Of a stretch of DNA of 64,000 nucleotides, positions 19,081 to 53,676 are shown in pieces. The first letter of the stretch is position 1. Each line of letters starts with the position of its first letter. This stretch comes from Candidatus Omnitrophota bacterium. GTDB taxonomy: Bacteria > Omnitrophota > Omnitrophia > Omnitrophales > JACROU01. The stretch lies in the NCBI GenBank assembly GCA_029261035.1, contig JAJDCD010000023.1, positions 38,501 through 102,500 on the forward strand, given 5' to 3'. Both the position numbers and the translations under genes were made by a program. The notes under the pieces are model-generated. The model saw nothing but the letters and a program-made list of their open reading frames with translations. It was not told the DNA's origin and did no database searches.

Positions 19081-19117
19081 ATTAGCGCTAAAGAGAAAGT
19101 GTTAGACAGAGGACGTT

Positions 19118-21299: not shown

Positions 21300-21304
21300 A
21301 ATGC

Positions 21305-22813: not shown

Positions 22814-22824
22814 AAAGAGTCTCG

Positions 22825-24687: not shown

Positions 24688-24989
24688 TATTGTTTTAAAT
24701 CCGTAAAGTCTGTTACATCGATTGTTTTTTGAGTTCTAAAAAGTAAAATACAAATAGCCAGTCCTATGGCAACTTCTCCGGCGGCAATGGCCATAGAGAA
24801 TAGGGTGACAATTTGGCCTTCCAAATTACCATGAGCTTGAGAGAAAACAACAAAACTTAAATTCACAGCATTAAATAAGAGTTCTATAGAAAGTAAAACT
24901 AAAATTGCATTTTTTCGTGTAAAAATGCCAATCAGACCAATGGCAAAGAGAACGAAAGCGACTGTTAAATAATGAGATAAAGGAATCAT
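24687..24989 (-). CDS. nuoK: NADH-quinone oxidoreductase subunit K
   Basis: 100 aa, 3 TM segments, ND4L family. Confidence 0.9.
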   Translation of the reverse strand: MIPLSHYLTVAFVLFAIGLIGIFTRKNAILVLLSIELLFNAVNLSFVVFSQAHGNLEGQIVTLFSMAIAAGEVAIGLAICILLFRTQKTIDVTDFTDLKQ

Positions 24990-25487
24990 TTACAAATCTT
25001 TCTTCGCTAAAACTACCGAGCCAATAATGGCTACGAGCAAAATTAAAGATAAAAGTTCAAATGGAAGTAAGTATTTTGAAAATAAGAGTTTTCCTAAGCT
25101 TTCAACGGTACCTTCAACTAATACGATGTTTTCAGACGTAGTTTCTTTGAAAGAACGAACCAACATAAAAAGTCCTGCAAGAGAAAGAATGCTCAGTCCA
25201 AGACTTAGGCCATAGCGAACCGGATTTTTCCAGAAAACAGGAGACTCATTGTTGTATCCAAGCAACATGAGTACAAATAGAAACAGGACTAAAATAGCGC
25301 CAGCATACAGAGTGATATGGATTATGGCGACGAAATAAGCCTTTAAAAGCAGAAAAAGGATAGCTAAAGAGAACATGCCTACAAGAAAGCTCAGCACGCA
25401 ATAAACGGGATTTCTTAAAGTTATCGCTAAAAGTGCCGAAAATAGCAGGATACTCGAAAATAAATAAAAGGATGTTGTTTCTAGCAT
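24990..25487 (-). CDS. nuoJ: NADH-quinone oxidoreductase subunit J
   Basis: 165 aa, ND6 family; carries the VLYAGAILVLFLFVLMLL motif. Confidence 0.88.
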   Translation of the reverse strand: MLETTSFYLFSSILLFSALLAITLRNPVYCVLSFLVGMFSLAILFLLLKAYFVAIIHITLYAGAILVLFLFVLMLLGYNNESPVFWKNPVRYGLSLGLSILSLAGLFMLVRSFKETTSENIVLVEGTVESLGKLLFSKYLLPFELLSLILLVAIIGSVVLAKKDL

Positions 25488-31491: not shown

Positions 31492-33063
31492 CTAGATGAC
31501 GCGTTCGTATTCGTCTTTTTTAAGTTTCCAGACAGGCTTACCGCAAAAACGATCCCCTTCAGGGCAGAATGGAGTTACTTTAGCATTGAAGCGCATATGA
31601 CATGGAGGGTATATGTGTTTAACTAAATTAGGTTGTACTTTTTCGACTTGTTTTACCTCATCGAGACAGTTGTGCCAAATTTCTTCTTGGGCGGTATAAC
31701 ATAGACGGTGAACCCATTTGTGATGAAAGTTCAGCAAATCCCCAGACTCCACAAAACGAATAGGAAAAGAGTTTGGTACCAGATAAGTAGCAAACTCTTC
31801 CGAAACACCCAAGTCGAGTAATTTGTTAATTCCTTCCCAAATTTTTTGATGGGCCTTTTCATAGATTTCCGTTGCTTCAGCACTTTCTGAAATGAGAGGA
31901 GGAGTGATGAAGTCTACTTTATCTCGAACAAATTGAGTGATGAAAATAGGGCGAGACCCTGGAGTCATTCGATGACGTTGATCTTGAGAGTCTGCGGTGT
32001 GGCTTATTTTTTTTCTAAAAGTGAAGTGAGGATGCAGCATCGTTCGTGTTAGCTTCGCGTGCGATGTTAAATTTAAAGCTTCTTTGTAGTACGTATTTTT
32101 AGCTGGGGACATAGCCGCTTCGATGGCGTCTTCATTTGAAAGCTTTTCTTTTGGGATACCCAATACAGTTCGGACGGCTTCTCCCATTGTCTCTTCCGCA
32201 TTTGTTTTGTAGTCGATCAAAAAAGAAGTGCTATTGCCGAGATTCTTATCAAACTCTTCAACAAATTGTCGTGAGAGACCCTTGTTGCTTTGGTTGTGAA
32301 ACTGATGAAATAATTGGTATTCCGGAGTTTCTTCGATTGGGATAGAGTCTTCAATGTTTTGAAAGAAAAGAGGGTCTTGTTCTGTTACGGCGGCAATCAT
32401 TTTTCCAACGACTAACTTTTGTTCATGAGGAGTGTCATAGGAATTAACCAGTTTGTTGTAACGGTGCAATGTTAACCCGCTGATAGTGTGGTACAGGTGA
32501 GCGTGTGTTGCAACAGGCAAAATATAACGAGCGACTTCCTGAGTTTTTTTCTTAAGAGAACTCTGCCAACGTTTTTCTTCCGTATTTCTATTGGGAAATA
32601 CTTTTGAATACGATTTTAGTGTAGGCGTCATGAGAACTTCATTTAACTTGTGATACGTATCCATTTGGAAATTGGCGATTGATTCGTAAACATCAAGTGC
32701 TTCGCCTTCCAATGGAGGAACCCAAAAAGTACCTGGTTTTACAGAAACGTAGCGTTGACTGACTTGTTCTGAATTGTAGAACATATGACTATGTAGAAAG
32801 GCCCAAATAAATTGACGAGAAACTTTCTCGAGGACAAACTGAAATGTTGCATGCTGAATTGTTGTGTGATGCCCTGCTTGGTAGATACTCGTGGCAATAC
32901 GGTCTCTTAAATCCCGAGAACGCTCGTCTTTGTCGACGTCTTCAGAGTAGATTACCTTAGAAGAATAACAGGTTCGAGCTGTGGCAACGGCATTATTGTA
33001 AGGCGTTTTAAAGATATTAATCAGCTTTACTTCAGGTTGTGTGGGAGTCAATGTTGTTTGCAT
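31492..33063 (-). CDS. thyX: FAD-dependent thymidylate synthase ThyX, double-length (tandem-domain) form
   Basis: 523 aa with an RHRM..S ThyX-type motif. This length matches the ~530-aa ThyX characteristic of Chlamydiae. Confidence 0.7.
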   Translation of the reverse strand: MQTTLTPTQPEVKLINIFKTPYNNAVATARTCYSSKVIYSEDVDKDERSRDLRDRIATSIYQAGHHTTIQHATFQFVLEKVSRQFIWAFLHSHMFYNSEQVSQRYVSVKPGTFWVPPLEGEALDVYESIANFQMDTYHKLNEVLMTPTLKSYSKVFPNRNTEEKRWQSSLKKKTQEVARYILPVATHAHLYHTISGLTLHRYNKLVNSYDTPHEQKLVVGKMIAAVTEQDPLFFQNIEDSIPIEETPEYQLFHQFHNQSNKGLSRQFVEEFDKNLGNSTSFLIDYKTNAEETMGEAVRTVLGIPKEKLSNEDAIEAAMSPAKNTYYKEALNLTSHAKLTRTMLHPHFTFRKKISHTADSQDQRHRMTPGSRPIFITQFVRDKVDFITPPLISESAEATEIYEKAHQKIWEGINKLLDLGVSEEFATYLVPNSFPIRFVESGDLLNFHHKWVHRLCYTAQEEIWHNCLDEVKQVEKVQPNLVKHIYPPCHMRFNAKVTPFCPEGDRFCGKPVWKLKKDEYERVI

Positions 33064-38985: not shown

Positions 38986-39034
38986 GGCCATAGATCAGAG
39001 CTGATTACAGCTCCTGGTTTATGGCCTTTTTTTT
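38986..39034 (+). terminator. Rho-independent terminator (ggccata...tatggcc + T8) overlapping the last codons of the convergent ccsA
   Basis: Stem ggccata/tatggcc with an inner atcag/ctgat pairing, then tttttttt. The T-run encodes the KK of the CcsA C-terminus on the other strand. Confidence 0.5.
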
Positions 39035-40689
39035 AGATTTCTTTTTCCTAGTATTCCAAGAATAATAACAAATGCTAAGTCGGCAATAACGAATGTGCTT
39101 ACCGTCCCCACACCGCCGCCTCCAAATCCGTAGCTATGCAGTCCTGCAGACAAAACATAATTAACCCCATACCAAGCCATTAAAATTCCTAAAAAACAAA
39201 CAACAGAGCTCACCGCCAAACCAAAATGTCCGATCCAGTTGATGAGACGTGCGTGTAGAACAATCAGATAAAAGATAAGTGCAATGAGTGCCCATGTTTC
39301 TTTTGGATCCCATCCCCAAAAACGTCCCCAAGAGTAATGCGCCCAAACGCCGCCTAAAATGGTTCCTGTAGCGAGAAGAATAATTCCGATTTGAATGCAT
39401 CGATAAATAAAATACCCTAAGCTTTCGATTAAATTTTTGTTACCCGGTTTGAATGCATATGTGATGAGTTGAATATGACCCACGGCCATGGCAAGGGCGA
39501 GGACGCCATAGCTGAGCGTGATTGTAAGGACATGAATTGTAAGCCAATAGTTACTTCTTAATACGGGCACTAGAGGAGTAATGCTTGGGTCTAAATAAGC
39601 AGGTAGATTGTCACACAGAATGAGCCCTAACCCTGCAACAGCACTCGCTCCAATCCAAACTGTTTTAGATCGATTAAACAGATAAATAAGAAAACAAAAT
39701 CCTATTGAGGCCCAAGAAACCCAGATGACAGACTCATACATATTGCTGACAGGTGGACGTCCTGCAATCAAACAACGGAGCAGGATTCCATAGGTTTGCA
39801 GTAAGAAGCCCACTACCAAAGAAACGGTTCCTAGTAAAGAAAGAGCTCTAAGAGACTTGAACGAGCCAAGAGAAAACATAAAAAAACTAAAAAGGTAAAG
39901 AACCCACGTCCAACGAAAAGGACGAAGGTCATTGTATTGAACTTCTAAAGGATAAGGGTTGATGCCTTTATATGAATTTAGAGCATTGATGTAAAAAGGG
40001 TTTGCTTCTGAAATAGCACGAATTGCTTTTAAAGAGGAGGCTAGCTTTTCTGAGTTGTTCTCTTTATAAGCGGTGAAAAAATCAGCGTAAGGTTCTTGAT
40101 AGCTGGATAAAGATTGAGTTTTTGAAATTTGATTTATAGGCAGCCAATTTTTAGACGTATCTTGAGGGGGAATTAAATTCCAGGTTAGCCCTTGGCTTGC
40201 AGCATAAAAAAAATTCATACGATTATAGAGTTCAATCTCTTTCTTTTCTAAGAAGGTGAGCTCTTCGTCTGCTGATTGTCTTTTCTTATGCTTCATTACC
40301 TTTTGCATAAAAAGATTGTTTGAAGCGACGGACTCAGGGCTGACTGTTTTAGTCTTGGCATTGAGGCCGAGAGAAAGAGCTAACTCTTTGGTTGAGATTG
40401 GCAAGAAAGCCTTTTGTTGCCAATCATTTCCATTAGTAATCCACTGCATTAAAATATGAGATGCGTCCTGACCCTTAATGGATTCTTTGCCAGCGGTGAC
40501 AATTAGAGTTTCTTTAGCGAAACTGGAAAAAGGTTTTATGCGGCCGCTATGTTGCATAGGCATTTTCTTTAACTCAGATAAATTAATAGAGGATGTTTCG
40601 GCGAGGCATGGGGATATTAAAAAGGCGCTTATAATTAAACTCAAATAGATTATTTTAAATTTCATGATGGTTCCTTTCATTATTAACAA
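39019..40689 (-). CDS. ccsA: Cytochrome c biogenesis protein CcsA/ResC (system II heme lyase component) with a long N-terminal periplasmic extension
   Basis: Signal peptide; WGWDPKETWALIA tryptophan-rich (WWD-like) heme-handling motif; multiple TM segments. Confidence 0.8.
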   Translation of the reverse strand: MLIMKGTIMKFKIIYLSLIISAFLISPCLAETSSINLSELKKMPMQHSGRIKPFSSFAKETLIVTAGKESIKGQDASHILMQWITNGNDWQQKAFLPISTKELALSLGLNAKTKTVSPESVASNNLFMQKVMKHKKRQSADEELTFLEKKEIELYNRMNFFYAASQGLTWNLIPPQDTSKNWLPINQISKTQSLSSYQEPYADFFTAYKENNSEKLASSLKAIRAISEANPFYINALNSYKGINPYPLEVQYNDLRPFRWTWVLYLFSFFMFSLGSFKSLRALSLLGTVSLVVGFLLQTYGILLRCLIAGRPPVSNMYESVIWVSWASIGFCFLIYLFNRSKTVWIGASAVAGLGLILCDNLPAYLDPSITPLVPVLRSNYWLTIHVLTITLSYGVLALAMAVGHIQLITYAFKPGNKNLIESLGYFIYRCIQIGIILLATGTILGGVWAHYSWGRFWGWDPKETWALIALIFYLIVLHARLINWIGHFGLAVSSVVCFLGILMAWYGVNYVLSAGLHSYGFGGGGVGTVSTFVIADLAFVIILGILGKRNLKKRP

Positions 40690-40737
40690 AGGGTATTCCT
40701 TATCCTTCTTTAGAGGAGGGAAGGAATAAAATTTTAT

Positions 40738-42522
40738 CTATTTTCCAACTTCCGTATCTTCAAATAAAGGTTTTGGATTGGAGTATTTTTTTGTGAAGAA
40801 AATTAAAATAATACCAATCACCATAATGATCGAGCCTGCGTATTTTAGAGGGATTCCGATGTCTTTGCTGACAGTAAAAATAGAAATATCCGGTTTTCCT
40901 TCTTTGCCTAATTGATATCCGGATTGGTAGATGCGATATCCTTTGTGAATTAAAGGCTCATTCATGCTAATTAAGACTTCCTTAAACAAGCCTTCTTCAG
41001 GGTCTTTTAATAGAACTTTACTTTTAAACTCAGCAGGCTTGTTTGTGCCTTGATAATATTCCACTATAAAATCTTTAAGCTCAATCTCAAAACCCAGGGG
41101 TTGGTTCAGAGATCCTTGCGAAATGCGATAATGGTGATTGTCTAACGCAACAATCGTTTTGACGGCATGAGAGAACCATTGTTCTTTTGTGTCATTTCCT
41201 CTACGAAACTCAAAGAGAGCTGCAGGCTGAGCTCTCTTTCCACCAGAGGGAATAGGCCTTTGGGCATAGGAGGAAGAGAGGAATCCTGAGGGCTCATAGC
41301 GATCGATAATAAACTGCAAGCTCATCCAACCTGTATTATATTCTGTATTCAGAATCATAGGCTGTATTTCAGAAATTCCATTTTTAGATTTAATTTGATA
41401 GCTTAAACTTTTGTCTTCATTCACAATAATTCGAAGTTCATTAGAAGGTTTAGATGCGTCTGAAGCATTTGTGGTAAATGAAACTTTAAAACCGGACTTG
41501 TTGGTTTGTTTTCCATGAAGAGTTGTGAAGTTAGGAAAAAGAGAAAAAACGGTGTGTTTTTCTTCAACGTTGTTTCCACTAATTAAAATCTCACAAGCGG
41601 GGTTCGTAGGGTTTTCGGATTTAGTAATTAATTTGCCGTCTTCAACAATTGCATGTGGAAGGAATCGTAAGACTTGGACTTCGAAACCAGTGTCCTTTAA
41701 TGGAATTTTTCGTTGGAGAGCTTCTTCTAATGGAATTTTAATTTCCACACCCTCTTTTTGAAATAGAAGAATACCTTTGGATGAAGATCCGGGGCCTTCA
41801 GTTATGGGTTGAGTCGAAAGGCTTATTTGAGCAGGCCCTAAATTAAGGAACGCGTCTTTGTTGTTCAGACTGAGAAACCCTTCTGTTTGTGTAAAATTAT
41901 TATAAAGTGAAATATGAATAGAAGGTTCCCCATTTTCCTGTTTTGAAATAGATTGAACGGGTTGTGCATGAGGAAAATATTTTTTAAGAGAAATACTTAA
42001 ATCAGCTGTTTGGCCAAAGATAGCCAAAGGATCATTTCCTTCCCAAATAAAAGGTTTGGTTGGAATGGGTGCAATTGCTTGCGACTTTATTTCTGCATTT
42101 TGGATAAAGAGGAGAGGTTCGTCTAATATAATTCGATTAGTTTTTTCTCCCTCAGATAAAGCAATGTTCGCGTCCACCATGGTTCGTGCTGTTAATAAAG
42201 AACCGAAAAGAATAAGGATAATTCCTAAGTGTGTGATAAGAAAGCCAACGTGGTTTTTCCTCCAAGGAAGGCGGGTGAAGGGAACTAGAGTAACATTAAG
42301 ACCGATGAGAAGAAGTAGAATCACAAACCATAAACTAAAATAAACTACTTGTTGAGCTGCTTTAGCTCCGTGAAGAGATTCTATGATGGTTCCAGCAGCG
42401 AGAGAAATAGCCAAGGAACTTAACAGAACAATGGCTAGCTGTTGAGAAGCAAGGCTTTTGAAGATAGTATTACAAATTTTAAAAAGGGTATTCATTGGCT
42501 TAAAACCTCTTAGGTAAGCCAA
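40738..42522 (-). CDS. resB: Cytochrome c biogenesis protein ResB/Ccs1
   Basis: 594 aa; N-terminal TM segments, a large periplasmic domain and a C-terminal TM segment. Lies adjacent to ccsA on the same strand. Confidence 0.7.
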   Translation of the reverse strand: MAYLRGFKPMNTLFKICNTIFKSLASQQLAIVLLSSLAISLAAGTIIESLHGAKAAQQVVYFSLWFVILLLLIGLNVTLVPFTRLPWRKNHVGFLITHLGIILILFGSLLTARTMVDANIALSEGEKTNRIILDEPLLFIQNAEIKSQAIAPIPTKPFIWEGNDPLAIFGQTADLSISLKKYFPHAQPVQSISKQENGEPSIHISLYNNFTQTEGFLSLNNKDAFLNLGPAQISLSTQPITEGPGSSSKGILLFQKEGVEIKIPLEEALQRKIPLKDTGFEVQVLRFLPHAIVEDGKLITKSENPTNPACEILISGNNVEEKHTVFSLFPNFTTLHGKQTNKSGFKVSFTTNASDASKPSNELRIIVNEDKSLSYQIKSKNGISEIQPMILNTEYNTGWMSLQFIIDRYEPSGFLSSSYAQRPIPSGGKRAQPAALFEFRRGNDTKEQWFSHAVKTIVALDNHHYRISQGSLNQPLGFEIELKDFIVEYYQGTNKPAEFKSKVLLKDPEEGLFKEVLISMNEPLIHKGYRIYQSGYQLGKEGKPDISIFTVSKDIGIPLKYAGSIIMVIGIILIFFTKKYSNPKPLFEDTEVGK

Positions 42523-42647: not shown

Positions 42648-43049
42648 TTATGCTTTTGTTGCCCAATCCCCATTTTCGAGTTGTATTTTGTGCCCTTTAC
42701 TGGCTTTTGTTCTTTGAGTTTCAGCAAAGACTTTTTCGACGGTGGAAATTTCGCTTAGAGGGAGTTTGTTCTGTTTCAGAATAGCTTCATAGATAGTTCT
42801 TCGATCTTGATTTTCAGCACTGGCAACTTCATTCACTTTGTCGTCTCCGTTAAAGTAAATCACGTAACCTTTGTTGCCCTCACCAATTTTTTCTTGGCTC
42901 ATCAATGTTTCTAATTGGCTGAAACGAGAGCGTCTATCATCAAGAGCTTTCTTGATTTCAGGAGTTATTTTTTTTAAGTCATAACTACCTGCATATACAA
43001 GAGGTGTAACTAAAATAAGAGTGAGTATAAAGAATAATATTTTTTTCAT
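42648..43049 (-). CDS. ydbL: YdbL-like periplasmic protein (DUF1318)
   Basis: Signal peptide plus GYVIYFNGDDKVN..ENQDRRTIYEAI, resembling YdbL. Sits in a ydbH-ynbE-ydbL-type operon. Confidence 0.6.
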   Translation of the reverse strand: MKKILFFILTLILVTPLVYAGSYDLKKITPEIKKALDDRRSRFSQLETLMSQEKIGEGNKGYVIYFNGDDKVNEVASAENQDRRTIYEAILKQNKLPLSEISTVEKVFAETQRTKASKGHKIQLENGDWATKA

Positions 43050-43066
43050 TGTCTGTACCTCTGTTT

Positions 43067-43312
43067 TTAAATTGTTTCAGTATTACCGCTGACATAATCT
43101 TCAATTGAATCAGCAGTTTGTTTTAATTCTCGAATATCAACAATTACGTGAGCCTTGATGGTGATAGGGCGATTAGGATCTCCAACGGCTTTCACGGTAC
43201 AACTTTGAAAGAGGGGGGTGGTAAGTAAAATAAGCAAACTCAGCAAAGCAAAGAAAGAATTTCTTTTTTGCATATGCTTTATTGAGAAACTTGAAACCCT
43301 CTTAATTTCCAT
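43067..43312 (-). CDS. ynbE: YnbE-like small lipoprotein
   Basis: Lipobox-like LFQSC, then TVKAVGDPNRPITIKAHVIVDIREL matching the YnbE family pattern. Confidence 0.6.
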   Translation of the reverse strand: MEIKRVSSFSIKHMQKRNSFFALLSLLILLTTPLFQSCTVKAVGDPNRPITIKAHVIVDIRELKQTADSIEDYVSGNTETI

Positions 43313-44372
43313 TTTCTAATCTCCTTAAGACCTTCAGTATTTTGTTTAGATAATTGTCGAGAATCTCTTGATCAAAATTAATGTCTACAAGCACCTCTAT
43401 GTCTAAATTGAGTTTCTTGCTGATAAAGGTAATCTTTGCTTGAAAAGACTTTTCATCTTTATTCTTAAGCAAAATGATGAACTTGTCAAATGGAACTCTG
43501 TTTTTTTCACTCAGCAAACTTTCTATCTTTGTCTTATCGGCATTAGACGGTAATTTGTCCAACAATATTCGAACGACTTCGGAGTTTATTTCTCCAAGGG
43601 TAATGGAGTGGGTGTTCCCCTCTATTTGAGTGATTTTACCTTTTTCTACAACCAGATGAACATTTCCATCAAAAAAGCCTTTTGCTGGAGCGATCCACGA
43701 GATCCCAAGATCGGCAAGCCCTTGAATGTTGGCTTCATGGAGTGTTCCGTCTAATATAAGAAGTTCTTTTTCGGGCTCGAATTCAATATGAGCCGTAATT
43801 TTTCCTTCTAGAAATCGGGCGCTGACAATGTCTAGGGTTAAAGGGGTCATTTCTGAAATAACCCCTGATATTTGATCGAGTGCATATTCCTGAAATTGAA
43901 GTTTGTCTATTTGAAAAGATCCATATCCCGTAGGGATTGCCACTCGATAAGCGGGGCTCCATTGAATTTGGGCCTTTTCTATTTGAATCTCTTTAGACTC
44001 GAGATCCATATCCTCTATCCAGAGGAGAGGGCTATTTAACTGTTTGAACGGAGGAAGTTCTAACCCCGCTTCTGAAAAGCGTAATGTGTAATCGTTTTGA
44101 GGGTCTGAGAATTCAAAATGTCCCTGGGTTGACTTAAGGCCATAAACCGCAAAGCTTAGTTCGTGACCATGAAGGTCGGTTTCTTTTCTTTTATAAGGCT
44201 TGATCGTTCCAAGGGAAACCTTATTTAAAGTAATGTCCGGCAAAGCTTGTTTTGCAATCAAGGGAAGAGATATTTTTAGACCAGAAGGAGTTAAGAAGAA
44301 AAAGAAGGTGATGAGAACAAAACCGCTTAAGATCAAAAAGAGCGTTAAGAGAAGCTTAAAAAAAATTCGCAT
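43302..44372 (-). CDS. ydbH: YdbH/AsmA-like membrane-anchored protein (short form)
   Basis: N-terminal TM anchor, 356 aa. Its position upstream of ynbE/ydbL mirrors the E. coli ydbH-ynbE-ydbL operon; direct sequence-level support is weak. Confidence 0.45.
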   Translation of the reverse strand: MRIFFKLLLTLFLILSGFVLITFFFFLTPSGLKISLPLIAKQALPDITLNKVSLGTIKPYKRKETDLHGHELSFAVYGLKSTQGHFEFSDPQNDYTLRFSEAGLELPPFKQLNSPLLWIEDMDLESKEIQIEKAQIQWSPAYRVAIPTGYGSFQIDKLQFQEYALDQISGVISEMTPLTLDIVSARFLEGKITAHIEFEPEKELLILDGTLHEANIQGLADLGISWIAPAKGFFDGNVHLVVEKGKITQIEGNTHSITLGEINSEVVRILLDKLPSNADKTKIESLLSEKNRVPFDKFIILLKNKDEKSFQAKITFISKKLNLDIEVLVDINFDQEILDNYLNKILKVLRRLENGN

Positions 44373-45661: not shown

Positions 45662-46162
45662 ATGTCTAGGAGATCGGTTTTGGCTTTTCATTTTGTGGAT
45701 AAAATTGTGGCCTTGAAGAAGGGTGAATCTATCTCTATTTCAAGGGTTCTAAGAGAAGATGAGGAGTATCTTCAAGATCATTTTGCGAAGTTTCCAACAA
45801 TGCCAGGTGTGTTGATATTGGAATCCGCCATTCAGGCAGCCACATGGCTATTGCGATATACAGATTCTTTTAAATATTCCTTTTATACGGTTAAAGAAAT
45901 TAAAGCAGTAAAGTTTGGGCAATTTGTGAGACCTGGAGATGAGCTTCAAGTCCAGGCAGATCTCATGAAAGAGGAAGAAGGTCTTATACAATTTAAGGCC
46001 CAAGCAATACTTAATGGGGCTTCTGCTATTCGAGTTCGATTTCAGATGGAAAGACAATCTATTCAGGAAGAGAATGCTTCATTAAAATCGTTACATGAAA
46101 ACATCGTTGAGAGAGATCAAAAAAGTTTCAAAAAATTAACAGAAGAAGCAGTTTTTCAATAG
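45662..46162 (+). CDS. FabZ/FabA-like hotdog-fold 3-hydroxyacyl-ACP dehydratase
   Basis: DHFAKFPTMPGVLILESAIQAATW follows the FabZ signature (HF..P.MPGVL.E...Q). Confidence 0.7.
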   Translation: MSRRSVLAFHFVDKIVALKKGESISISRVLREDEEYLQDHFAKFPTMPGVLILESAIQAATWLLRYTDSFKYSFYTVKEIKAVKFGQFVRPGDELQVQADLMKEEEGLIQFKAQAILNGASAIRVRFQMERQSIQEENASLKSLHENIVERDQKSFKKLTEEAVFQ

Positions 46163-46173
46163 GAATAATATAT

Positions 46174-46929
46174 ATGAGTCGACTTAAAGATAAAGTGGCA
46201 TTAGTTTCTGGAGGTTCTCGCGGAATTGGAGAGGCTATTGTTCGCAAGTTAGTAAGCGAAGGCGCTCATGTCGTTTTTACTTATAATACCAACAAAGAAC
46301 GTGCGGAATCCATTTGCTCTGAATTGGGGTCGGATACAAGTAAAGTAATTGCTTACCCATGTTCCTTAGAAGATAAAAGCAGTATTCAAGCGGTTGTGGA
46401 TCAAACGCTAGAGCAGTTTGAAACTTTGGATATTCTGGTTAACAATGCGGGAATTATTCGAGATGGTCTTTTCTTAGCAATGGATGACAAAGATTGGGCG
46501 GATGTGATTCAGGCAAATTTGGGTGGGACCTACTTTTTTTCTAAAGCCGTTTGTCAGCAAATGTTATTTCAAAAAAAAGGAAGAATTATAAATTTGTCTT
46601 CTGTGGTGAGTTTAATTGGAGGCATTGGTCAGGCTAATTATGCCGCTTCAAAAGGTGCTATCAATTCGATGACAAAAGCATTAGCGGCCGAGTTGTCTGG
46701 AAAAGGGATTACCGTAAATGCTGTTGCTCCTGGTTTGATCGAAACAGAAATGATTCAGAATTTAAAAAGCTTGGTAGGAGACCTTAAGAAGAAGGTCCCT
46801 TGTGGACGTTTTGGGGAGCCGAGCGAAATTGCTTCTTTGGTGGCTTTTTTAGCCTCTGATGAAGCGGCTTATATTACCGGCCAAATTATTACGATTGATG
46901 GTGGTATTAGTTTACAGTCGAGACACTAG
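46174..46929 (+). CDS. fabG: 3-oxoacyl-ACP reductase (SDR family, FabG-like)
   Basis: GGSRGIGEAI cofactor-binding motif, NAG, YAASKGA catalytic Tyr-x3-Lys; 251 aa. Confidence 0.85.
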   Translation: MSRLKDKVALVSGGSRGIGEAIVRKLVSEGAHVVFTYNTNKERAESICSELGSDTSKVIAYPCSLEDKSSIQAVVDQTLEQFETLDILVNNAGIIRDGLFLAMDDKDWADVIQANLGGTYFFSKAVCQQMLFQKKGRIINLSSVVSLIGGIGQANYAASKGAINSMTKALAAELSGKGITVNAVAPGLIETEMIQNLKSLVGDLKKKVPCGRFGEPSEIASLVAFLASDEAAYITGQIITIDGGISLQSRH

Positions 46930-47140
46930 CTTGGTAAGCGCGGTAAATGTCCTTCTGAGCAGAATAGGGACAAAGAATCCCTTGTAATAGTAAGCATTTA
47001 GCATATATCTACATATCTTTTTTATAAAGAGATGAGTCGGAAGGATAGAAGAGTTTTTTAGTTTTTAGGGCCAGATAATTTCATAGTGGCATAAATAGCT
47101 TATTTTTAGTAGTATTGAGGGTCAAAAAGGAGGCGTAAGA

Positions 47141-47542
47141 GTGGATAAAAGCAAAGATGAAATACTTCAAGGCGTAACAGATTGCCTTGTTAATGCTCTG
47201 GGTGTTGGTGAGGATGAAGTAAAGCTGGAATCTTCTTTAGTAAAGGATTTAGGAGCAGAATCCATTGATTTTCTAGATGTGGTTTTCCGGTTGGAAAAAA
47301 ACTTTGGAATTAAGATTCCTAGAGGCGATCTTTTCCCAGAAAATCTTTTAACAAACCCCGCATTTATCTCAGACGGTCGTATTACTGATTCAGGCATGCA
47401 GGAGCTTAAAACGAAGCTTCCTCATATTGATTTCTCTGAATTTGAAAAAGAACCTTTAGTTAGTAATCTTTCTGATGTATTTACGGTGGGCATGATTGTA
47501 GATTATTTATTTGGCAAATTAGCAGAAAAAACCGGAGCTTAG
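47141..47542 (+). CDS. Acyl carrier protein with a ~55-aa C-terminal extension (GTG start)
   Basis: DLGAESIDFLDVVF phosphopantetheine-attachment-like serine context. An AGGAGG ribosome-binding site precedes the GTG. At 133 aa it is long compared with canonical 78-aa AcpP. Confidence 0.65.
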   Translation: MDKSKDEILQGVTDCLVNALGVGEDEVKLESSLVKDLGAESIDFLDVVFRLEKNFGIKIPRGDLFPENLLTNPAFISDGRITDSGMQELKTKLPHIDFSEFEKEPLVSNLSDVFTVGMIVDYLFGKLAEKTGA

Positions 47543-47660
47543 TTCAAAGAACTGAGCTCCTTAAACCTTCTATTACCCTCAGTTTCATGACCAAAAAAAC
47601 GATTAACAAACTGTCGTTAGACAAAACACACACATTTTTTTTATTTGAGGAGATTTACCG

Positions 47661-48059
47661 ATGACCGCTCTCACAAGAAGGCCTCAAGGTATTGGTGTGG
47701 ATATTGTTGATGCAACTCGAATTCAGAATTTTATAGAGAAGCATGAATCGAGTTTAAATAAGATTTTAACCGAATCTGAATTGCAGAAGATGATGGAAAG
47801 CACAGATAGAGTTAGTTATTTAAGCTATTTGTTTTCGGCAAAAGAAGCGGTGTTTAAAAGTTTAGATTTAGCATGGTTTGGAATAGAAGGTTTTAGAATG
47901 ATTGAAGTGACTTTGAATTTAGAGCAAAACCAAGCAACGGCAGTATTAACAGACAATCTTTTAGAGCAAACTCAAAGTTGGTGGGATGAAACACTTATCG
48001 ATTTTGAAACGAAAGATAACAGCGTTGTTGCAAAGGCGATCAGTTACAGCAAAACATAA
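47661..48059 (+). CDS. acpS: Holo-ACP synthase (4'-phosphopantetheinyl transferase, AcpS type)
   Basis: GIGVDIVDATRI N-terminal motif and FSAKEAVFK are typical of AcpS; 132 aa. Confidence 0.8.
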   Translation: MTALTRRPQGIGVDIVDATRIQNFIEKHESSLNKILTESELQKMMESTDRVSYLSYLFSAKEAVFKSLDLAWFGIEGFRMIEVTLNLEQNQATAVLTDNLLEQTQSWWDETLIDFETKDNSVVAKAISYSKT

Positions 48060-48146
48060 TGTCAGAGGAAAGTTTGTCATCCTAGAGCGAAGCGAAGGAT
48101 CTGTTTACTTCTATTAAAGAGGCCGTTCTATAAAGGAGAATTTAAT

Positions 48147-48635
48147 TTGCGTTGGTATATGTTGGATAAATTTAATTTTATTGATGTAGAGAAGAACCAG
48201 TCTCAAGCTGTAAAAGCCCTATCCCGTGGTGATGGTTTTTTTGAAGAACATTACGATTTATATCCCGTACTTCCAGAATCTGTTCAGATTGAGATGATTG
48301 CTCAAGCCGGAGGAGTTCTTGTAGGGGCCGCTTTAGATTTTAAAAAAGAAATTGTTCTAGGAAAAATTGATTTTGCGCGTTATGAAAAAACAATCTTACC
48401 GCCCGCCCAATTGGTGATAGATGCTTGGGTCGAAGAAAAACATGATGAAGGAGCTCGGATCCAGGGGGAAATTACCTGTGACGGACAGCTTGTAAGTGAG
48501 GCGAGCATTTTATTGATTTATATGGATCAACTTGATTCAAAAACAGATCTTAAAAGTGGAGAGTCTATTGTATTTAGTGATAACTTTCTAAATGCACTTC
48601 AAATCAGGGAGCATTTAAAGGTGTCTACTTCATGA
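48147..48635 (+). CDS. Divergent FabZ-like hotdog dehydratase
   Basis: EEHYDLYPVLPESVQIEMIAQAGG resembles the FabZ active-site region. TTG or a downstream ATG is the start. The stop overlaps the next gene (ATGA). Confidence 0.6.
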   Translation: MRWYMLDKFNFIDVEKNQSQAVKALSRGDGFFEEHYDLYPVLPESVQIEMIAQAGGVLVGAALDFKKEIVLGKIDFARYEKTILPPAQLVIDAWVEEKHDEGARIQGEITCDGQLVSEASILLIYMDQLDSKTDLKSGESIVFSDNFLNALQIREHLKVSTS

Positions 48636-49927
48636 AGCGTAGAGTTGTAATTACGGGTTTGGGGGCAATTTCTTGTTTGGGCCATGGAGTGAATCCTTTG
48701 TGGGAGGCGGCCGTTAAAGGAGAAAGTGGTCTTAAAGAGATTGATTCTTTTGATTATGGTGATTTTCCTGTGCGATTGGCAGGTGAAGTTAAAGAATTTA
48801 AACCTCAGGATTACATTAAGAATCGTAAATCCATTAAAGTGATGTCGCGGGATATTCAGCTGGCCTGTGCTGCCAGCACCCTTGCATTTCAAGATTCTAA
48901 AATTAAAGAGGAGGAGCTCAACCCCGAAAGAGCGGGGGTTTGTATGGGAGCGGGTCTCTTAGATAATGAAGTTGATGAAATTGCGGCAGGGATTAAGAGT
49001 TCTTTGGATGAGCAAGGTATTTTTCAGATGAAAAAATTTGGTTCGGATGGATTGGACTCGTTATTTCCTCTTTGGATGTTAAAGTACTTGCCCAACATGC
49101 CGGCTTGTCATATTTCCATCAATCATAACCTTCAAGGGCCTAGCAACACGATTACCACTTCTTGTTCTTCTTCGATCCAGGCGGTTGGAGAATCTTTTCG
49201 TATTATTGAACGGGGAGATGCAGACGTGATGTTTGCTGGAGGCGCTGAAAGCAGAGTAAATCCTTTGGGGATTTCTCGCTATCATTTATTTAATGCGCTT
49301 CTTCAAGGCAAAGATAAAACAAAAGAAGATTACAGCCCTTTTGATAAGAGTCGTTCGGGGTTTATTGTTGGTGAAGGTTCTGGGGTTGTTATTTTAGAAG
49401 AGTTGGAGCACGCTCAAAAACGAGGAGCGCGTATTTATGCAGAAGTTCGAGGTTACGGAAGCTCTGCAGATTATAATTATTTCCCCAATGAATTAACGGA
49501 TTCGGATGGTAGAGAGATTGCGATGTCTACAGCGTGTAGTGATGCGGATATTCAACCCGATAATGTAGACATGATTCATGCACATGGGAGCGGGATAGAT
49601 AAAGACGACTTGTTAGAAGCTCGAGCCATTCATGAAGTGTTTCAAGCAAAAGCGAAAGAAATTCCAGTCGTAGCAACTAAGGCATTAATGGGTCACTCTG
49701 GTTTTGCTTCTGGAGCCTTTCAAGTTATCCTTTCGGCAAAGATGTTAGAGGAGCAAAAAATATTATCCACGCTTAATTACACAACCCCAGATTCAGATAT
49801 TAACCTTAATATGAGTAAAGAGCTAAAAACAGGCGTTGATGTTTCAACGATTCTTTCTAATGCATTTGGTATGAGCGGGCAAAACGCTTCTCTCGTTTTA
49901 ACTTCTACACCCGGAGGGGATAAGTAA
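48632..49927 (+). CDS. Beta-ketoacyl-ACP synthase (KS), first of a tandem pair
   Basis: Active-site Cys in TITTSCSSSIQAV, His motifs HAHGSG and KALMGHSG; thiolase-fold KAS I/II family. Confidence 0.8.
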   Translation: MKRRVVITGLGAISCLGHGVNPLWEAAVKGESGLKEIDSFDYGDFPVRLAGEVKEFKPQDYIKNRKSIKVMSRDIQLACAASTLAFQDSKIKEEELNPERAGVCMGAGLLDNEVDEIAAGIKSSLDEQGIFQMKKFGSDGLDSLFPLWMLKYLPNMPACHISINHNLQGPSNTITTSCSSSIQAVGESFRIIERGDADVMFAGGAESRVNPLGISRYHLFNALLQGKDKTKEDYSPFDKSRSGFIVGEGSGVVILEELEHAQKRGARIYAEVRGYGSSADYNYFPNELTDSDGREIAMSTACSDADIQPDNVDMIHAHGSGIDKDDLLEARAIHEVFQAKAKEIPVVATKALMGHSGFASGAFQVILSAKMLEEQKILSTLNYTTPDSDINLNMSKELKTGVDVSTILSNAFGMSGQNASLVLTSTPGGDK

Positions 49928-51216
49928 TGACGAGAAGGGTAGTGGTGACAGGGTATGGGATTGTTTCTCCAATGGCTCATAACGTTAAAGAAACATGGGA
50001 AGGGTTAATTCAAGGCCGTTCTGCAGTGGGCCCGATTAATTTATTTGACGCCTCTTCTTTTCCAACTCAAATTGCAGGTGAAGTTCGAAATTTTGATTTC
50101 GACCCTTGGCGGAAAAAAGATCCTCATTTAAAGTATGCTGCTCGGAATACGCAATTTGCAGTTCAGGCAGCCCACGAAGCTTTTACGAATGCGGGGTTGG
50201 ACACCTTCGATTATGACCCAAAAAGAACAGGCATCTACTTTGCTGCGGGAGATGGCGGAACCAATATCGCAAGTTTTGTTCAAGCTTTGTCGGAGTCTTG
50301 GGGGCAAAACGGACAAGTGATTAATAAAAGTAAATATTTGGAAGTCAGTCAGCCAGCATTTGATTATCATGATGAACTTGAGATTGATCCTTGTATGACG
50401 TTAGCTCACTTATCCCGAATCTTTCGTGTTCGAGGACCTGTGTCTAATTGTTTAACTGCTTGCGCGGCATCGAGCCAAGCAATCGGAGAAGCCTTTCAAT
50501 CGATTCGAAGAGGGAATGTAGATATTATGATTACGGGAGGATCTCATTCGATGATTCATCCATTTGGTCTTGCTGGATTTAATTTATTAACAGCCCTTTC
50601 TACCCAAAATGAACACCCTGAAAAAGCGAGCCGTCCTTTTGATCGAAATAGAGATGGTTTTGTTTTAAGCGAAGGTTCCGGAGTTCTTATTTTAGAAGAG
50701 TTGGAATATGCCAGAAAACGAGGAGCGCATATCTATGGTGAAGTGACTGGATATGGTTCTACAGCAGATGCTTATCGATTAACAGATACACACCCCGAAG
50801 GTCGCGGAGCTATTAAGGCAATGGAGCTTGCCTTACAAAGTGCCGGGTTAGAACCTAAAGATATTGGATACATTAATGCGCATGGAACTTCAACTGTGGT
50901 GAATGACCTTGTAGAAACGCAATCCATCAAAAAAGTGTTTGGAGATCAAGCTCAACAGATTCCTGTAAGTTCTATTAAATCCATGTTAGGGCATTTGATT
51001 GCCGCCGCTGGAGCTGTTGAACTAATTACTTCTCTGTTAGTGACTCAAAATGGAATTATTCCTCCAACCATCAATTATGATGAAAAGGATCCGAAGTGTG
51101 ATTTAGACTATGTGCCTAACCACTCAAGAGAAAAAAAGGTGGATGCGGTTTTAAGTAACTCATTTGGGTTTGGTGGCCAAAACGTTTCATTAATAGCAAG
51201 GAAGCTTAGCTCATGA
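49927..51216 (+). CDS. Beta-ketoacyl-ACP synthase II-like (KS), second of the tandem pair
   Basis: LTACAASSQAIGEA (Cys), INAHGTST, KSMLGHLIAAAGA motifs. The start ATG shares an A with the preceding TAA. Confidence 0.8.
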   Translation: MTRRVVVTGYGIVSPMAHNVKETWEGLIQGRSAVGPINLFDASSFPTQIAGEVRNFDFDPWRKKDPHLKYAARNTQFAVQAAHEAFTNAGLDTFDYDPKRTGIYFAAGDGGTNIASFVQALSESWGQNGQVINKSKYLEVSQPAFDYHDELEIDPCMTLAHLSRIFRVRGPVSNCLTACAASSQAIGEAFQSIRRGNVDIMITGGSHSMIHPFGLAGFNLLTALSTQNEHPEKASRPFDRNRDGFVLSEGSGVLILEELEYARKRGAHIYGEVTGYGSTADAYRLTDTHPEGRGAIKAMELALQSAGLEPKDIGYINAHGTSTVVNDLVETQSIKKVFGDQAQQIPVSSIKSMLGHLIAAAGAVELITSLLVTQNGIIPPTINYDEKDPKCDLDYVPNHSREKKVDAVLSNSFGFGGQNVSLIARKLSS

Positions 51217-52190
51217 TGTGGATTTATATTGTCTTAGGCATTTTTGTTGTAGCACTGTTTATTGCTTCTGCAGTTATCTCTCTAAAATATATTCGCATTG
51301 TTGCAGATAATATTTTAAATGTTCCTTTTCCTTTAGATCATCCCCGCACAAATACAGTTGTGAGCCAAGAAGTAGAATTTTCTTCTTATGACGGCACTCT
51401 CTTTCATGGCCAATTCATTGCATGTCCAAGTAGTTCCAAGAAAACCGTTATCTTCTGTCATGAGTATGGGTCGGAGCAAAGCTCTTGGAGTAAATATCTT
51501 TTTTATTTACCTCAAAATGGTTTCAATGTATTTACTTTTGATTTTAGAAAAGGAAAAGACAGGACGGGCCTTCATAAAAAAGGATTTAGCCCAAAGCAAT
51601 GGCCTACAAAAAAAGAATTACGAGATCTGCAAGCCGCTATTAATTACCTTCAAAAGCGCAATGACGTTGATGCTGAAAATTTAGGAGTGTTTGGAGTTTC
51701 TAAAGGAGGGGGGCTTGCGTTGTGTGCCGGAGCAAAGTCAAAACGAGTACGGGCTGTGATTGCTGACGGAGCTTGTCCTGTGGTTGCAACCATTAAAGAC
51801 TATATCGATAAATGGGCCAATATATATATTTACGAACCCGTATTAAAAAGACTTCCACAATTTATTTTGTACTCGCTGGCTTATTTCAGTATTCATTTTG
51901 CTTCCTTTAGATTGAGATCTAGAATTCTTTTTGTGGAAAATTATATTAAAAGATCAAAATCTCCTGTTTTTATTATTCATGGAGAAAAGGACAGTTATAT
52001 TCGTTCGGCGCATGCTAATTACCTTTATGACCGTGTGCCTACAGAAAAAGATGTGTGGGTTTGCTCTGGCGCTGCTCATAATGAGTCGGTTGTAACAGAG
52101 CCGGAAGAATACCAAAAGCGTGTCCTGTCTTTTTTTCAAAAGCATTTGAATGAAGAGAATTTAGAGCCGTCCTATAGTAAAAAGGAATAA
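51213..52190 (+). CDS. Membrane-anchored alpha/beta-hydrolase (possible thioesterase/acyl-hydrolase)
   Basis: N-terminal TM helix; GVSKGGG nucleophile elbow (GxSxG); 325 aa. Overlaps the previous stop (ATGA). Confidence 0.7.
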   Translation: MMWIYIVLGIFVVALFIASAVISLKYIRIVADNILNVPFPLDHPRTNTVVSQEVEFSSYDGTLFHGQFIACPSSSKKTVIFCHEYGSEQSSWSKYLFYLPQNGFNVFTFDFRKGKDRTGLHKKGFSPKQWPTKKELRDLQAAINYLQKRNDVDAENLGVFGVSKGGGLALCAGAKSKRVRAVIADGACPVVATIKDYIDKWANIYIYEPVLKRLPQFILYSLAYFSIHFASFRLRSRILFVENYIKRSKSPVFIIHGEKDSYIRSAHANYLYDRVPTEKDVWVCSGAAHNESVVTEPEEYQKRVLSFFQKHLNEENLEPSYSKKE

Positions 52191-52194
52191 TCTT

Positions 52195-52902
52195 ATGTTT
52201 AAAACGAAACTCACCGCACTTCTTATTTCTATTTTATTTATAAGCGGACCACTCAATGCAGAAACCCCAAAAACAACAGTAGAGTTGTTTGAGCTATTTA
52301 AAAACTTTGAGCCATCTTATGAAAAAATAGGGAACTATTCTGCGACTCTCAATAAAGAAGAGTTAGTTCGCGGAAAATGGGTCAAAGAGACACTGATATT
52401 TCATTTTCAAAAACCTTTTAAGATCAAGATCGAATGGTTAGAAGGGCCGAAGAAAGGTCGTAGAGCTTTTTTTGAAGAAGGAAAAAATAGTAATAAAATT
52501 ATAATCAAATTAGGCGGAGCTCTTGGAAAGATGTTTCCTAAGGTACGGATAGATCCTGATGGAGAGTTGGCAAAAGATGATGCGGATAGGACAATTCGGC
52601 AAGCTGGGTTGGGTTATCTCATGCAGGAAGTTTTTAAAGTGACTCAGGCGGGTTTGAATAACCAAGACTTAGAACTTACTTTATTGGAATCTGAAGACCC
52701 TAATGTATTTAAGGTCGAAAGAAGACTGCCATTAAAACCAGAAATTTACCCTAATGTTAAATTAATTGCCTACATCGATAAGATTACCGGAGTTCTTTTA
52801 GGTGTTGAAGAGTATGGTCTTGATGAAAAACTAAAAGGCACCTATGTTTATAATAACCTTAAAGTTAATGGACCCTTTACCGAAGAAAATTTTAAAGTTT
52901 AA
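52195..52902 (+). CDS. Secreted LolA-like / outer-membrane lipoprotein-carrier-like protein (tentative)
   Basis: Signal peptide; ~210-aa mature domain. The call rests on context within the lipid cluster and general resemblance to LolA-like proteins; the sequence assignment is tentative. Confidence 0.45.
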   Translation: MFKTKLTALLISILFISGPLNAETPKTTVELFELFKNFEPSYEKIGNYSATLNKEELVRGKWVKETLIFHFQKPFKIKIEWLEGPKKGRRAFFEEGKNSNKIIIKLGGALGKMFPKVRIDPDGELAKDDADRTIRQAGLGYLMQEVFKVTQAGLNNQDLELTLLESEDPNVFKVERRLPLKPEIYPNVKLIAYIDKITGVLLGVEEYGLDEKLKGTYVYNNLKVNGPFTEENFKV

Positions 52903-52909
52903 AATAAAT

Positions 52910-52998
52910 TCCCTTCTCCTCTTTGAGGAGAGGGTTAGGGTGAGGTGTGGTTTAAATTACCCTCATCCCAACCTTCTCCCTCTAAAGAAGGAGAAGGA
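52910..52998. repeat. Two family D elements in inverted orientation (52910..52944 and 52958..52998)
   Basis: cccttctcctc-tttg-aggagagg+gttagggtgagg, then the reverse-complement-type copy ccctcatcccaacc+ttctccctctaaagaaggagaagg. Confidence 0.65.
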
Positions 52999-53013
52999 GT
53001 ACAGTTGGTAAAC

Positions 53014-53676
53014 ATGAATTCTAAATACTCCCTTATTATATTTGATCTCGACGGCACACTCATAGATTCCCGCCAAGATATTGTAGATTCTGCAAACCGA
53101 ATGTTAAATGAGTTAGACTTACCCCAAAAAGGAGAAGAAGTAATAGCATCCTTTGTCGGACACGGTTTGGGCAATTTACTTTTGGACTGCATTGGTCTTG
53201 AAAACAAACATCTTGCAGATAAGGCGCTTGCGTTCTTTAAAAAAGATTACGAAGAACATATGCTTGATAAGACATGTTTGTTTCCAGAAGTGGATGATGT
53301 GCTGCAAACCATTTTTAATGGTTATTTTGATTCTGAAGTGATTCAGACGGTCGTGACGAACAAACCTCTTTATTATTCCGAGAAAATTTTACAGTTACTT
53401 AAAGCACACCACTATTTCAAAGTTATTTTAGGCGGGGATATGCCTATGCCAAAGAAACCTGCCCCGGACTCTGTGCAGCACTTATCTGAAACGTTTAAAG
53501 TGCCTAAAGAACAAATTTTATTTGTGGGGGATAGTCTTGTGGATATGCAGACAGCGAATAACGCTGGAGTTGATAGCTGTGCTGTTACCTTTGGTTTTGG
53601 ATCCTTAGAATCATTGACCAATGAAAATCCCACATATGTCATCAATAATTTCTCAGAACTCCTTGAAATTATTTAA
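53014..53676 (+). CDS. HAD-superfamily hydrolase (phosphoglycolate phosphatase-like)
   Basis: IIFDLDGTLIDS motif I. The start was set at MNSKYS (AGGAG ribosome-binding site), because the longer ORF would read through the family D repeats. Confidence 0.75.
   Translation: MNSKYSLIIFDLDGTLIDSRQDIVDSANRMLNELDLPQKGEEVIASFVGHGLGNLLLDCIGLENKHLADKALAFFKKDYEEHMLDKTCLFPEVDDVLQTIFNGYFDSEVIQTVVTNKPLYYSEKILQLLKAHHYFKVILGGDMPMPKKPAPDSVQHLSETFKVPKEQILFVGDSLVDMQTANNAGVDSCAVTFGFGSLESLTNENPTYVINNFSELLEII

Follow-up and report, generated by a model that had tools for sequence, protein, structure and literature searches.

An FAS II-derived gene cluster of Omnitrophota with a ketosynthase/chain-length-factor-type pair and an insertion-bearing acyl carrier protein

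A 64-kb stretch of DNA from a member of the Omnitrophota (the window) was analysed around a cluster of ten plus-strand open reading frames (ORFs) at 45662-53676, and families were assigned to these ORFs using Pfam and NCBIfam models (Table 1). The cluster encodes two FabZ-like dehydratases (DH1 and DH2), a ketoreductase (KR), an acyl carrier protein (ACP), an AcpS-type transferase, two FabF-type ketosynthases (KS1 and KS2), a membrane-anchored hydrolase, a secreted DUF1571 protein and a HAD-family phosphatase. An earlier note on this DNA had listed the same ten genes, and each was recovered as a plus-strand ORF of the family it had been given. In addition to the matches listed in the table, KR passed the NF009466 FabG subfamily model (252 vs 222), and KS2 passed NF005589 (479 vs 387).

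Table 1. Genes of the cluster, with coordinates in the window and the matches on which family assignment was based.
Feature	Coordinates	Strand	Size and matches
DH1, FabZ/FabA-like 3-hydroxyacyl-ACP dehydratase	45662..46162	+	166 aa; PF07977 6e-15; NCBIfam FabZ 78 bits
KR, FabG-like 3-oxoacyl-ACP reductase	46174..46929	+	251 aa; TIGR01830 282.8 bits (cutoff 297.75)
Dedicated ACP, GTG start	47141..47542	+	133 aa; PP-binding match covers residues 12-65 only
AcpS-type 4'-phosphopantetheinyl transferase	47661..48059	+	132 aa; Pfam ACPS 3e-12; TIGR00556 54 bits (cutoff 45)
DH2, divergent FabZ-like dehydratase, TTG start	48147..48635	+	162 aa; Pfam FabA 3e-10
KS1, FabF-derived ketosynthase paralog	48632..49927	+	431 aa; fabF model 383 bits, well below cutoff
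KS2, FabF-like condensing ketosynthase	49927..51216	+	429 aa; TIGR03150 486 bits (cutoff 493.75)
Membrane-anchored alpha/beta hydrolase	51213..52190	+	325 aa; Hydrolase_4, Peptidase_S9, DLH, AXE1 and BAAT_C matches
Secreted DUF1571 protein	52195..52902	+	235 aa; PF07608 1.7e-28; signal peptide ending ...PLNA/ET
HAD-family phosphatase, phosphoglycolate-phosphatase-like	53014..53676 (alternative GTG start 52945)	+	HAD_2 6e-35; NF009695 177 bits (cutoff 225)

Start and stop codons overlap across 48147-52190, as the note had stated, with ATGA at the DH2/KS1 junction, TAATG at KS1/KS2 and ATGA at KS2/hydrolase, and the hydrolase and DUF1571 genes are separated by a 4-nt gap. Shine-Dalgarno-like sequences were found upstream of the ACP, AcpS and DH2 genes. 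Scanning of 44.8-54.4 kb for promoters and terminators gave counts not different from those in shuffled sequences, and tRNA and Rfam scans gave no match. At 52905-52990, two GC-rich hairpins without a T-run (CCCTTCTCCTC...GAGGAGAGGG and CCTTCTCCCTC...GAAGGAGAAGG) separate the stop codon of the DUF1571 gene from the start of the HAD gene, and may reflect a boundary between transcripts or a site of processing. The HAD gene, set apart from the DUF1571 gene by these hairpins, is syntenic in the closest relative only, a different HAD gene stands downstream of KS2 in some other clusters (L009-type), and its membership of the operon is uncertain.

For comparison, one genome per GTDB species was scanned with two KS1 peptide motifs (PLW[FML]LKYLP and [LI]K[VL]MSR[DE]IQ), producing at least 600 matching stretches, and locus-level counts were taken from the best 80 of these. 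The 80 loci belong to Omnitrophota, Gemmataceae, Phycisphaerae, Pirellulales, Sedimentisphaerales and Planctomycetaceae. DH2 and KS1 were found together in 56 of them, most of which carry the full DH1-ACP-DH2-KS1-KS2 core, and the KS1-KS2 pair was kept in about 60. With its KS1 motifs, its gene order and an insertion between helices III and IV of its ACP, the window cluster fits this module, which is of Planctomycetes-Verrucomicrobia-Chlamydiae (PVC) type. Homologs of KS1 place the source organism in Omnitrophota. In the closest relative, an Omnitrophota locus on a 2.17-Mb JGI contig (L002; KS1 63% identical), all ten genes recur with order and flanks unchanged. The note had called the cluster accessory, and the idea of an idiosyncratic island was abandoned because the same-order core recurs in Omnitrophota, Auribacterota and many Planctomycetota amid housekeeping genes; it is a deeply conserved module of these three phyla.

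Around this core, the composition of the cluster varies between lineages. In more distant Omnitrophota, with KS1 about 46% identical, the set ACP-AcpS-DH2-KS1-KS2 is retained along with DH1, an S-adenosylmethionine-dependent methyltransferase and, upstream on the opposite strand, a divergently transcribed FabL-like short-chain dehydrogenase/reductase (SDR), and is followed downstream by a thioester reductase (TIGR01746, 171 bits), a family 2 glycosyltransferase (GT2) and an MMPL transporter, and these clusters sit between secA-lnt and aspS-lolCD-like genes. The minus-strand SDR (L004-L016, L019 and L020) was considered as a second ketoreductase and rejected, since it scores as a FabL-like enoyl-ACP reductase (NF005975, 297-303 bits, just under the cutoff of 328); it may be an unrecognised enoyl reductase of Omnitrophota, and in L019 and L020 ketosynthase, ketoreductase, dehydratase, enoyl reductase, ACP and AcpS are encoded together. 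In another Omnitrophota group the core is accompanied by genes for a HAD protein, a class III aminotransferase and an enzyme with an AMP-binding domain, and in Gemmataceae loci by those for KR, the hydrolase and an acyl-acid amido synthetase of the GH3 family. Nothing beyond the five-gene core was seen in Pirellulales and many Phycisphaerae, where a seryl-tRNA synthetase gene comes next. The fullest version of the window layout was found in one Auribacterota genome (L087), with the order DH1-KR-ACP-AcpS-DH2-KS1-KS2-hydrolase-GH3-methyltransferase-DUF1571-DUF1571. KR occupies the same position in L002, L087 and the Gemmataceae loci, as does AcpS in all Omnitrophota and Auribacterota clusters compared.

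Both ketosynthases of the window retain the catalytic set Cys/His/Lys/His (Cys178 in KS1), so the note was right that both keep the active-site Cys. Across the family, the set was found in 68 of 68 KS2 orthologs, while the catalytic Cys is absent from 73 of 78 KS1 orthologs, and this combination is the signature of a ketosynthase/chain-length-factor (KS/CLF) pair. The pair has the further properties of such systems, with two adjacent, translationally overlapping KS paralogs and an ACP in the same operon; the Cys-less subunit is a feature of the family and not of the window itself. Planctomycetota KS1 have Glu or Asp at the Cys position, mostly within the pattern E-H-K-N; Omnitrophota KS1 have Ser, Ala, Thr, Val or Pro there, often with Asn for the first His; and in Auribacterota KS1 the Cys gives way to Ser, and substitutions affect Lys and the second His as well. 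The Cys is kept only in the window, in its close relatives (P0002-P0010, 62-64% identity; L002) and in one planctomycete locus (L043). The window KS1 also has HGSG in place of FabF HGTST and GMSG in place of FabF GFGG. In a neighbour-joining tree (no support values), all KS1 form one clade apart from KS2, with the window KS1 lineage nested among Cys-less Omnitrophota KS1, and on this basis KS1 is assigned, from sequence, as an ortholog of a CLF-type subunit. The idea of two active ketosynthases therefore stands as far as the residues go, but the pair is orthologous to KS/CLF pairs, and the KS1 Cys, whether retained or regained, is seen in a small clade only.

Searches of the PDB gave ordinary FabF as the best match of both proteins (KS1 268 bits; KS2 364 bits, to B. 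subtilis FabF), with lower scores for chains B and C of 9s5h, the actinorhodin KS, AntD and Iga11. KS2 scored 315 bits against 9s5h_B, and KS1 scored 212 bits against 9s5h_B and 179 bits against 9s5h_C, chains that are probably the amxFabF2/amxFabFmut heterodimer of anammox bacteria. The PRK09116/PRK06519 models gave both proteins lower scores than FabF did. A second planctomycete set of KS1-like proteins (D-H-K-H, E-N-K-N and other patterns) was seen in L042, L044, L045, L057, L059, L073, L075, L077, L079 and L083, and the flanks fetched for these loci showed no ACP, DH or KS2; these proteins may be counterparts of the RB3714-type paralog pointed out for R. baltica in 2009 (PMC2649909).

The ACP had been described in the note as carrying a long C-terminal extension. 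Its GTG start was as described, but the alignment and a structural model place the additional residues internally. The phosphopantetheine attachment site (DLGAESID) and helices I-II are followed by a helix III region (IKIPRGDLFPE), and a conserved insertion of about 45 residues separates this from the canonical helix IV (FTVGMIVDYL). Conservation was high through the insertion in an alignment of 57 orthologs, and an AlphaFold2 (AF2) model built from 53 homologs (predicted local distance difference test, pLDDT, 87.5) shows it as a hairpin and two helices. Foldseek searches with this model returned only fatty acid synthase ACPs of 75-80 residues (TM score 0.84 target-normalised, at most 0.51 query-normalised), aligned over their full length but over only half of the query, with no solved ACP carrying such an insertion among the matches. 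The insertion region alone, used as a query, recovered 266 representative clusters, nearly all of about 130 aa; the full ACP gave at least 8000 candidates, and the matches listed include names from Omnitrophota, Planctomycetota and Auribacterota. All ACP equivalog models scored the window ACP below cutoff.

In the window, as in Planctomycetota, the His and Glu motifs of FabZ are present in both DH1 and DH2, and the DH1 motif DHFxxFPxMPGV...E is kept in 49 orthologs. In one Omnitrophota group (type-b), DH2 has lost the His segment and kept the Glu, and DH1 keeps both. FabZ active sites form across a dimer interface, so this pattern of loss fits a DH1:DH2 heterodimer, and DH2 is likely the partner of DH1.

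The hydrolase has a GxSxG motif, Asp and His that are conserved in 18 orthologs, and an N-terminal transmembrane helix followed by Lys and Arg residues, which, by the positive-inside rule, would place the catalytic domain in the cytoplasm. It lies downstream of KS2 in Omnitrophota, Auribacterota, Gemmataceae and Phycisphaerae loci, and is a putative acyl-ACP thioesterase or acyl transferase. GH3 enzymes are known as the hormone-conjugating family of plants. A GH3 acyl-acid amido synthetase gene directly follows the hydrolase in Gemmataceae (L029, 13743-15500) and Auribacterota (L087, 14987-16693), with the methyltransferase next in the latter; since GH3 needs a free carboxylate, the hydrolase would release a free carboxylic acid, and the GH3 tail suggests an N-acyl amino acid as the product in these two lineages. 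The DUF1571 protein has a signal peptide and no lipobox, and the family, PF07608, is one that we take to belong to the LolA/LolB clan. Weak matches to PF17131 (LolA_like) were obtained for two of five orthologs (best E 0.029), together with one to MucB_RseB (0.043), for the L087 paralog (PF17131), and in a PDB profile search ('outer membrane lipoprotein-sorting protein', E 0.63). A secreted LolA-like protein had been proposed in the note; secretion (signal peptide, DUF1571 at 2e-28) is borne out, the likeness to LolA is weak by sequence, and the protein is a putative periplasmic lipid carrier of the LolA/LolB superfamily. Hydrolase and DUF1571 genes co-occur in L002, L019, L020, L043 and L087, and because this spans at least three phyla, they are counted with the core.

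Our preferred interpretation, held with slightly better than even confidence, is that the cluster encodes a KS/CLF-type type II synthase, derived from type II fatty acid synthase (FAS II), which has its own carrier protein and whose chain is delivered to the cell envelope. It starts from observed gene content, order, translational coupling, catalytic residues and conservation across three phyla. AcpS would convert the insertion-bearing ACP to the holo form, which would then be loaded by a malonyl transferase encoded elsewhere. KS1 and KS2, which are translationally coupled, would act as a heterodimer that primes by decarboxylation of malonyl-ACP and then elongates, with KS2 as the condensing subunit and KS1 setting chain length or specificity; as the pair would prime itself, no FabH would be needed. 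This heterodimer and its mode of priming we infer from the anammox homologs. Each beta-keto group would be processed by the FabG-like KR and the DH1:DH2 pair, and the chain would be freed, probably as a free acid, by the membrane-anchored hydrolase with its catalytic domain in the cytoplasm. The lipid would cross the inner membrane, be taken up by the secreted DUF1571 protein and be passed towards the outer membrane. Within this scheme the thioesterase activity of the hydrolase, the carrier role of DUF1571 and the product are inferred. In its favour, the ACP departs in structure from housekeeping ACPs, and other lineages swap the tail for thioester reductase, GT2 and MMPL genes, and these tails, like hydrolase/GH3/DUF1571, indicate a specialised exported product.

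Several observations weigh against this interpretation. The window KS1 has an intact Cys178/His/Lys/His set, and with this set complete it need not be a passive CLF. Neither the cluster nor the rest of the window encodes a malonyl transferase, an enoyl reductase or an inner-membrane exporter. For DUF1571, the LolA-like assignment depends on the weak matches given above, and the AF2 model of the protein, built from a single sequence because a word-index search for homologs found only the window protein itself, reached a pLDDT of 38.6, too low for use. KS2 and KR fall only narrowly below the FabF and FabG equivalog cutoffs, which fits a housekeeping role, and the AcpS of the cluster may be the only one in the genome, which fits such a role as well.

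These last points lead to a different account, in which the cluster is, or doubles as, the main fatty acid synthase, a FabH-independent FAS II with FabD and enoyl reductase encoded elsewhere, and in which the hydrolase and DUF1571 divert part of the flux to the envelope. KS2, KR, DH1/DH2 and AcpS are homologous to FabF, FabG, FabZ and AcpS of canonical FAS II, with catalytic residues intact, and the near-cutoff scores of KS2 and KR (Table 1), the presence of AcpS inside all Omnitrophota and Auribacterota versions, the FabL-like enoyl-ACP reductase adjoining the cluster in other Omnitrophota and the housekeeping nature of the flanking genes all speak for it. In the part of the KEGG orthology (KO) tables of Seymour et al. 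(2023) that covers three Omnitrophota genomes, FabD, FabG, FabZ, ACP and AcpS are assigned in all three and FabH in one, so that FabH is absent from two of the three, and FabI/K/L KOs are assigned in none; such data record presence or absence in three genomes and are blind to a second ACP/FabF set. The cluster differs from canonical FAS II in lacking fabH, fabD and an enoyl reductase gene, in its second, CLF-type KS, in an insertion-bearing ACP of 133 aa against about 78 aa, and in its coupling to membrane hydrolase and secreted DUF1571 genes; the KS1 score of 383 bits also sets it apart, and KS/CLF architecture with a non-canonical ACP is atypical for primary fatty acid synthesis. Pfam annotation of the whole 64-kb window showed no fabH, fabD or fabI-type gene, none was found within 10 kb of the syntenic cluster in L002, and E. 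coli FabH and FabD queries found no homolog in the window or any fetched locus. The note's statement that these genes are missing was therefore upheld, as was its description of an FAS II-derived, ACP-dependent lipid cluster apart from the canonical fabH-fabD-fabG-acpP-fabF operon. In Planctomycetes, moreover, the module coexists with canonical FAS: planctomycetes with odd FabF paralogs also carry separate canonical FAS genes, as in R. baltica (paralog RB4527) and in K. stuttgartiensis (kustd1386-1389), whose sole acpS (Kuste2802) lies beside another degenerate FabF paralog (PMC2649909). Taking this together with the specialised tails, we regard the main-synthase account as possible but doubtful. 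Its stricter form, in which the module of Omnitrophota is their only FAS, FabH-independent, KS/CLF-primed, working with an ACP of unique insertion and, in the window clade, with a CLF that has the full triad, is unlikely in our estimate.

The note had drawn a parallel with aryl-polyene (ape) clusters, which combine type II KS/CLF proteins, a two-subunit dehydratase, a KR, a dedicated ACP, a thioesterase and a LolA-like protein, with the outer membrane as destination. Read in this way, the window would hold a reduced ape-type pigment cluster, making a conjugated polyene anchored in the outer membrane. Analogous parts are present (KS pair, two DH, KR, ACP, hydrolase, LolA-like protein), the window cluster has no enoyl reductase, DH1 orthologs in relatives match the Pfam ApeI-like family PF22818, and other Omnitrophota versions add methyltransferase, GT2 and MMPL genes. 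The DH1 of the window, however, reaches 20 bits against PF22818, below the cutoff of 28.5. The absence of typical ape components, which the note itself had recorded, was confirmed, with no AMP-binding or lyase domain in the scanned window ORFs of at least 120 aa, and no aryl-acid activating enzyme, ammonia lyase, third KS, MMPL exporter, glycosyltransferase or LpxL-like acyltransferase in the window. For export and anchoring the window offers DUF1571 alone, against MMPL and GT2 in other Omnitrophota versions. There are two KS only, both best matched by FabF and without specific kinship to ape KS, with no ape ketosynthase in the top 60 PDB matches, and the ACP insertion is foreign to ape clusters. 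With starter enzymes, third KS, MMPL and transferases missing and the KS not ape-like, the parallel is at most a loose one and an ape-type cluster is considered very improbable; nor is a polyene product implied, since relatives carry the FabL-like enoyl reductase.

Several other known systems were compared. The rhizobial cluster acpXL-fabZXL-fabF2XL-fabF1XL-lpxXL makes the very-long-chain fatty acid of lipid A alongside housekeeping FAS, and resembles the window cluster in having two FabF paralogs in tandem beside a specialised ACP and a dehydratase of its own; the window lacks an LpxXL-type acyltransferase, and AcpXL, of about 92 aa, has no insertion of the window type. The highly reducing type II polyketide synthase for ishigamide (Iga10-16) is alike in having a KS/CLF heterodimer and discrete KR, DH and ACP used iteratively, and differs in phylogenetic context, in tailoring genes and in score, with 168-222 bits for Iga11 against 268-364 bits for FabF. 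Anammox 'Cluster I' (KustE3603-3608) comprises amxACP, amxFabZ and amxFabF2/amxFabFmut (Granatino et al. 2026 preprint; Dietl et al. 2023). Like the window cluster it combines two tandem FabF paralogs with a FabZ-like dehydratase and an ACP of its own, one of the paralogs having the degenerate triad seen in nearly all members of the present family, and its host is a planctomycetote, as are other carriers of the module. In the window, the order is reversed, with the CLF-type gene first, the cluster has two dehydratases, KR, AcpS, hydrolase and DUF1571, the ACP has its 45-residue insertion and KS1 an intact triad, and both KS are nearer to ordinary FabF than to the amx proteins. The B12-radical SAM and phytoene-desaturase-like genes of Cluster I have no counterpart, as neither domain was found in the cluster or the window. 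AmxFabF2 and amxFabFmut co-purify as a heterodimer, decarboxylate malonyl-ACP and form acetoacetyl-ACP (Granatino et al. 2026, bioRxiv 10.64898/2026.05.19.726425), and by showing these two reactions, provide a tested precedent for FabH-independent priming.

The same anammox proteins prefer short chains and act in initiation, and this agrees with another proposal, by which the cluster makes a short or medium acyl-ACP as a primer or cofactor precursor (for example of octanoyl or pimeloyl type), the hydrolase and DUF1571 being unrelated to it. The minimal DH1-ACP-DH2-KS1-KS2 form of Pirellulales and Phycisphaerae, ending at a seryl-tRNA synthetase gene, also points in this direction. Set against it are the translational coupling of hydrolase to KS2 in the window, the co-occurrence of hydrolase and DUF1571 with the core in three phyla, and the GH3 and thioester reductase/GT2/MMPL tails, which point to an end-product lipid, and we judge a short-chain role improbable, retaining the envelope-directed KS/CLF-type synthase as the preferred interpretation.

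Genes elsewhere in the window include those for complex I, cytochrome c maturation, aconitase, ThyX, glutamate synthase and MutY. The complex I genes form two convergent blocks, at 11713-19678 (+) and 19881-25487 (-), one with NuoB, C, D, E, F, G, H and I-like genes and the other with three antiporter-like genes and a NuoJ-like gene, and ccsA/resB lie at 39019-42522; the split complex I together with ccsA/resB suggests a respiring member of the Omnitrophota. Described members have been inferred to be fermenters or acetogens (Omnitrophota papers). The ThyX-like protein (31492-33063, -) has 523 aa and two Thy1 stretches, and is about twice the length of a single Thy1 domain (profile of 191 positions). 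Two giant ORFs, at 34-8568 (+) and 25701-30785 (+), encode proteins of 2844 and 1694 aa for which Pfam gave nothing above noise; Omnitrophota are reported to carry very large orphan genes. At 42648-44372 (-), 1.3 kb upstream of the lipid cluster and syntenic in L002, lies a triad consisting of a 356-aa membrane-anchored protein without Pfam match, an 81-aa ORF and a DUF1318 protein. Its order and sizes resemble ydbH-ynbE-ydbL of E. coli, an AsmA-like lipid transport system, but it was not accepted as such, as Pfam support extends to DUF1318 only.

In earlier literature, odd planctomycete FabF paralogs were noted in 2009 (PMC2649909), where R. baltica RB4527 shows Glu163/His298/Lys328/Asn333 (Rattray et al. 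2009), the pattern of planctomycete KS1, and a 2023 catalogue (PMC10132072) lists KS/CLF-like pairs from Omnitrophica and Planctomycetes. In the literature searched, no functional study, product or phenotype of the module was found, nor any mention of DUF1571 or PDB 9S5H. The text of the Omnitrophota papers has no discussion of fab genes, the Ace Lake supplements contain no fab terms, and no cluster of the window type appears in a 2025 review on the secondary metabolism of planctomycetes. The module is a variant of the KS/CLF type II synthase, distinguished by its insertion-bearing ACP, two-gene dehydratase and lineage-specific tails, to which the window, judged by its residues, adds a version whose CLF-type subunit has the full catalytic triad.

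The insertion-bearing ACP represents an architecture absent from solved structures, and the KS1 variants, from the full triad to Ser, Ala, Glu or Asp, form a natural series for the evolution of CLF from ketosynthases. If the module were the only FAS of Omnitrophota, the ketosynthase heterodimer of the window clade would have two sites that are not equivalent and could both be active. The module also widens the evolutionary context of the ladderane-associated FabF heterodimer of anammox bacteria. The core has at least 600 matches among GTDB species genomes, plus thousands of metagenomic sequences. Its product is probably an envelope lipid conserved in PVC-related phyla, or possibly, in the case of Omnitrophota, the membrane fatty acids themselves.

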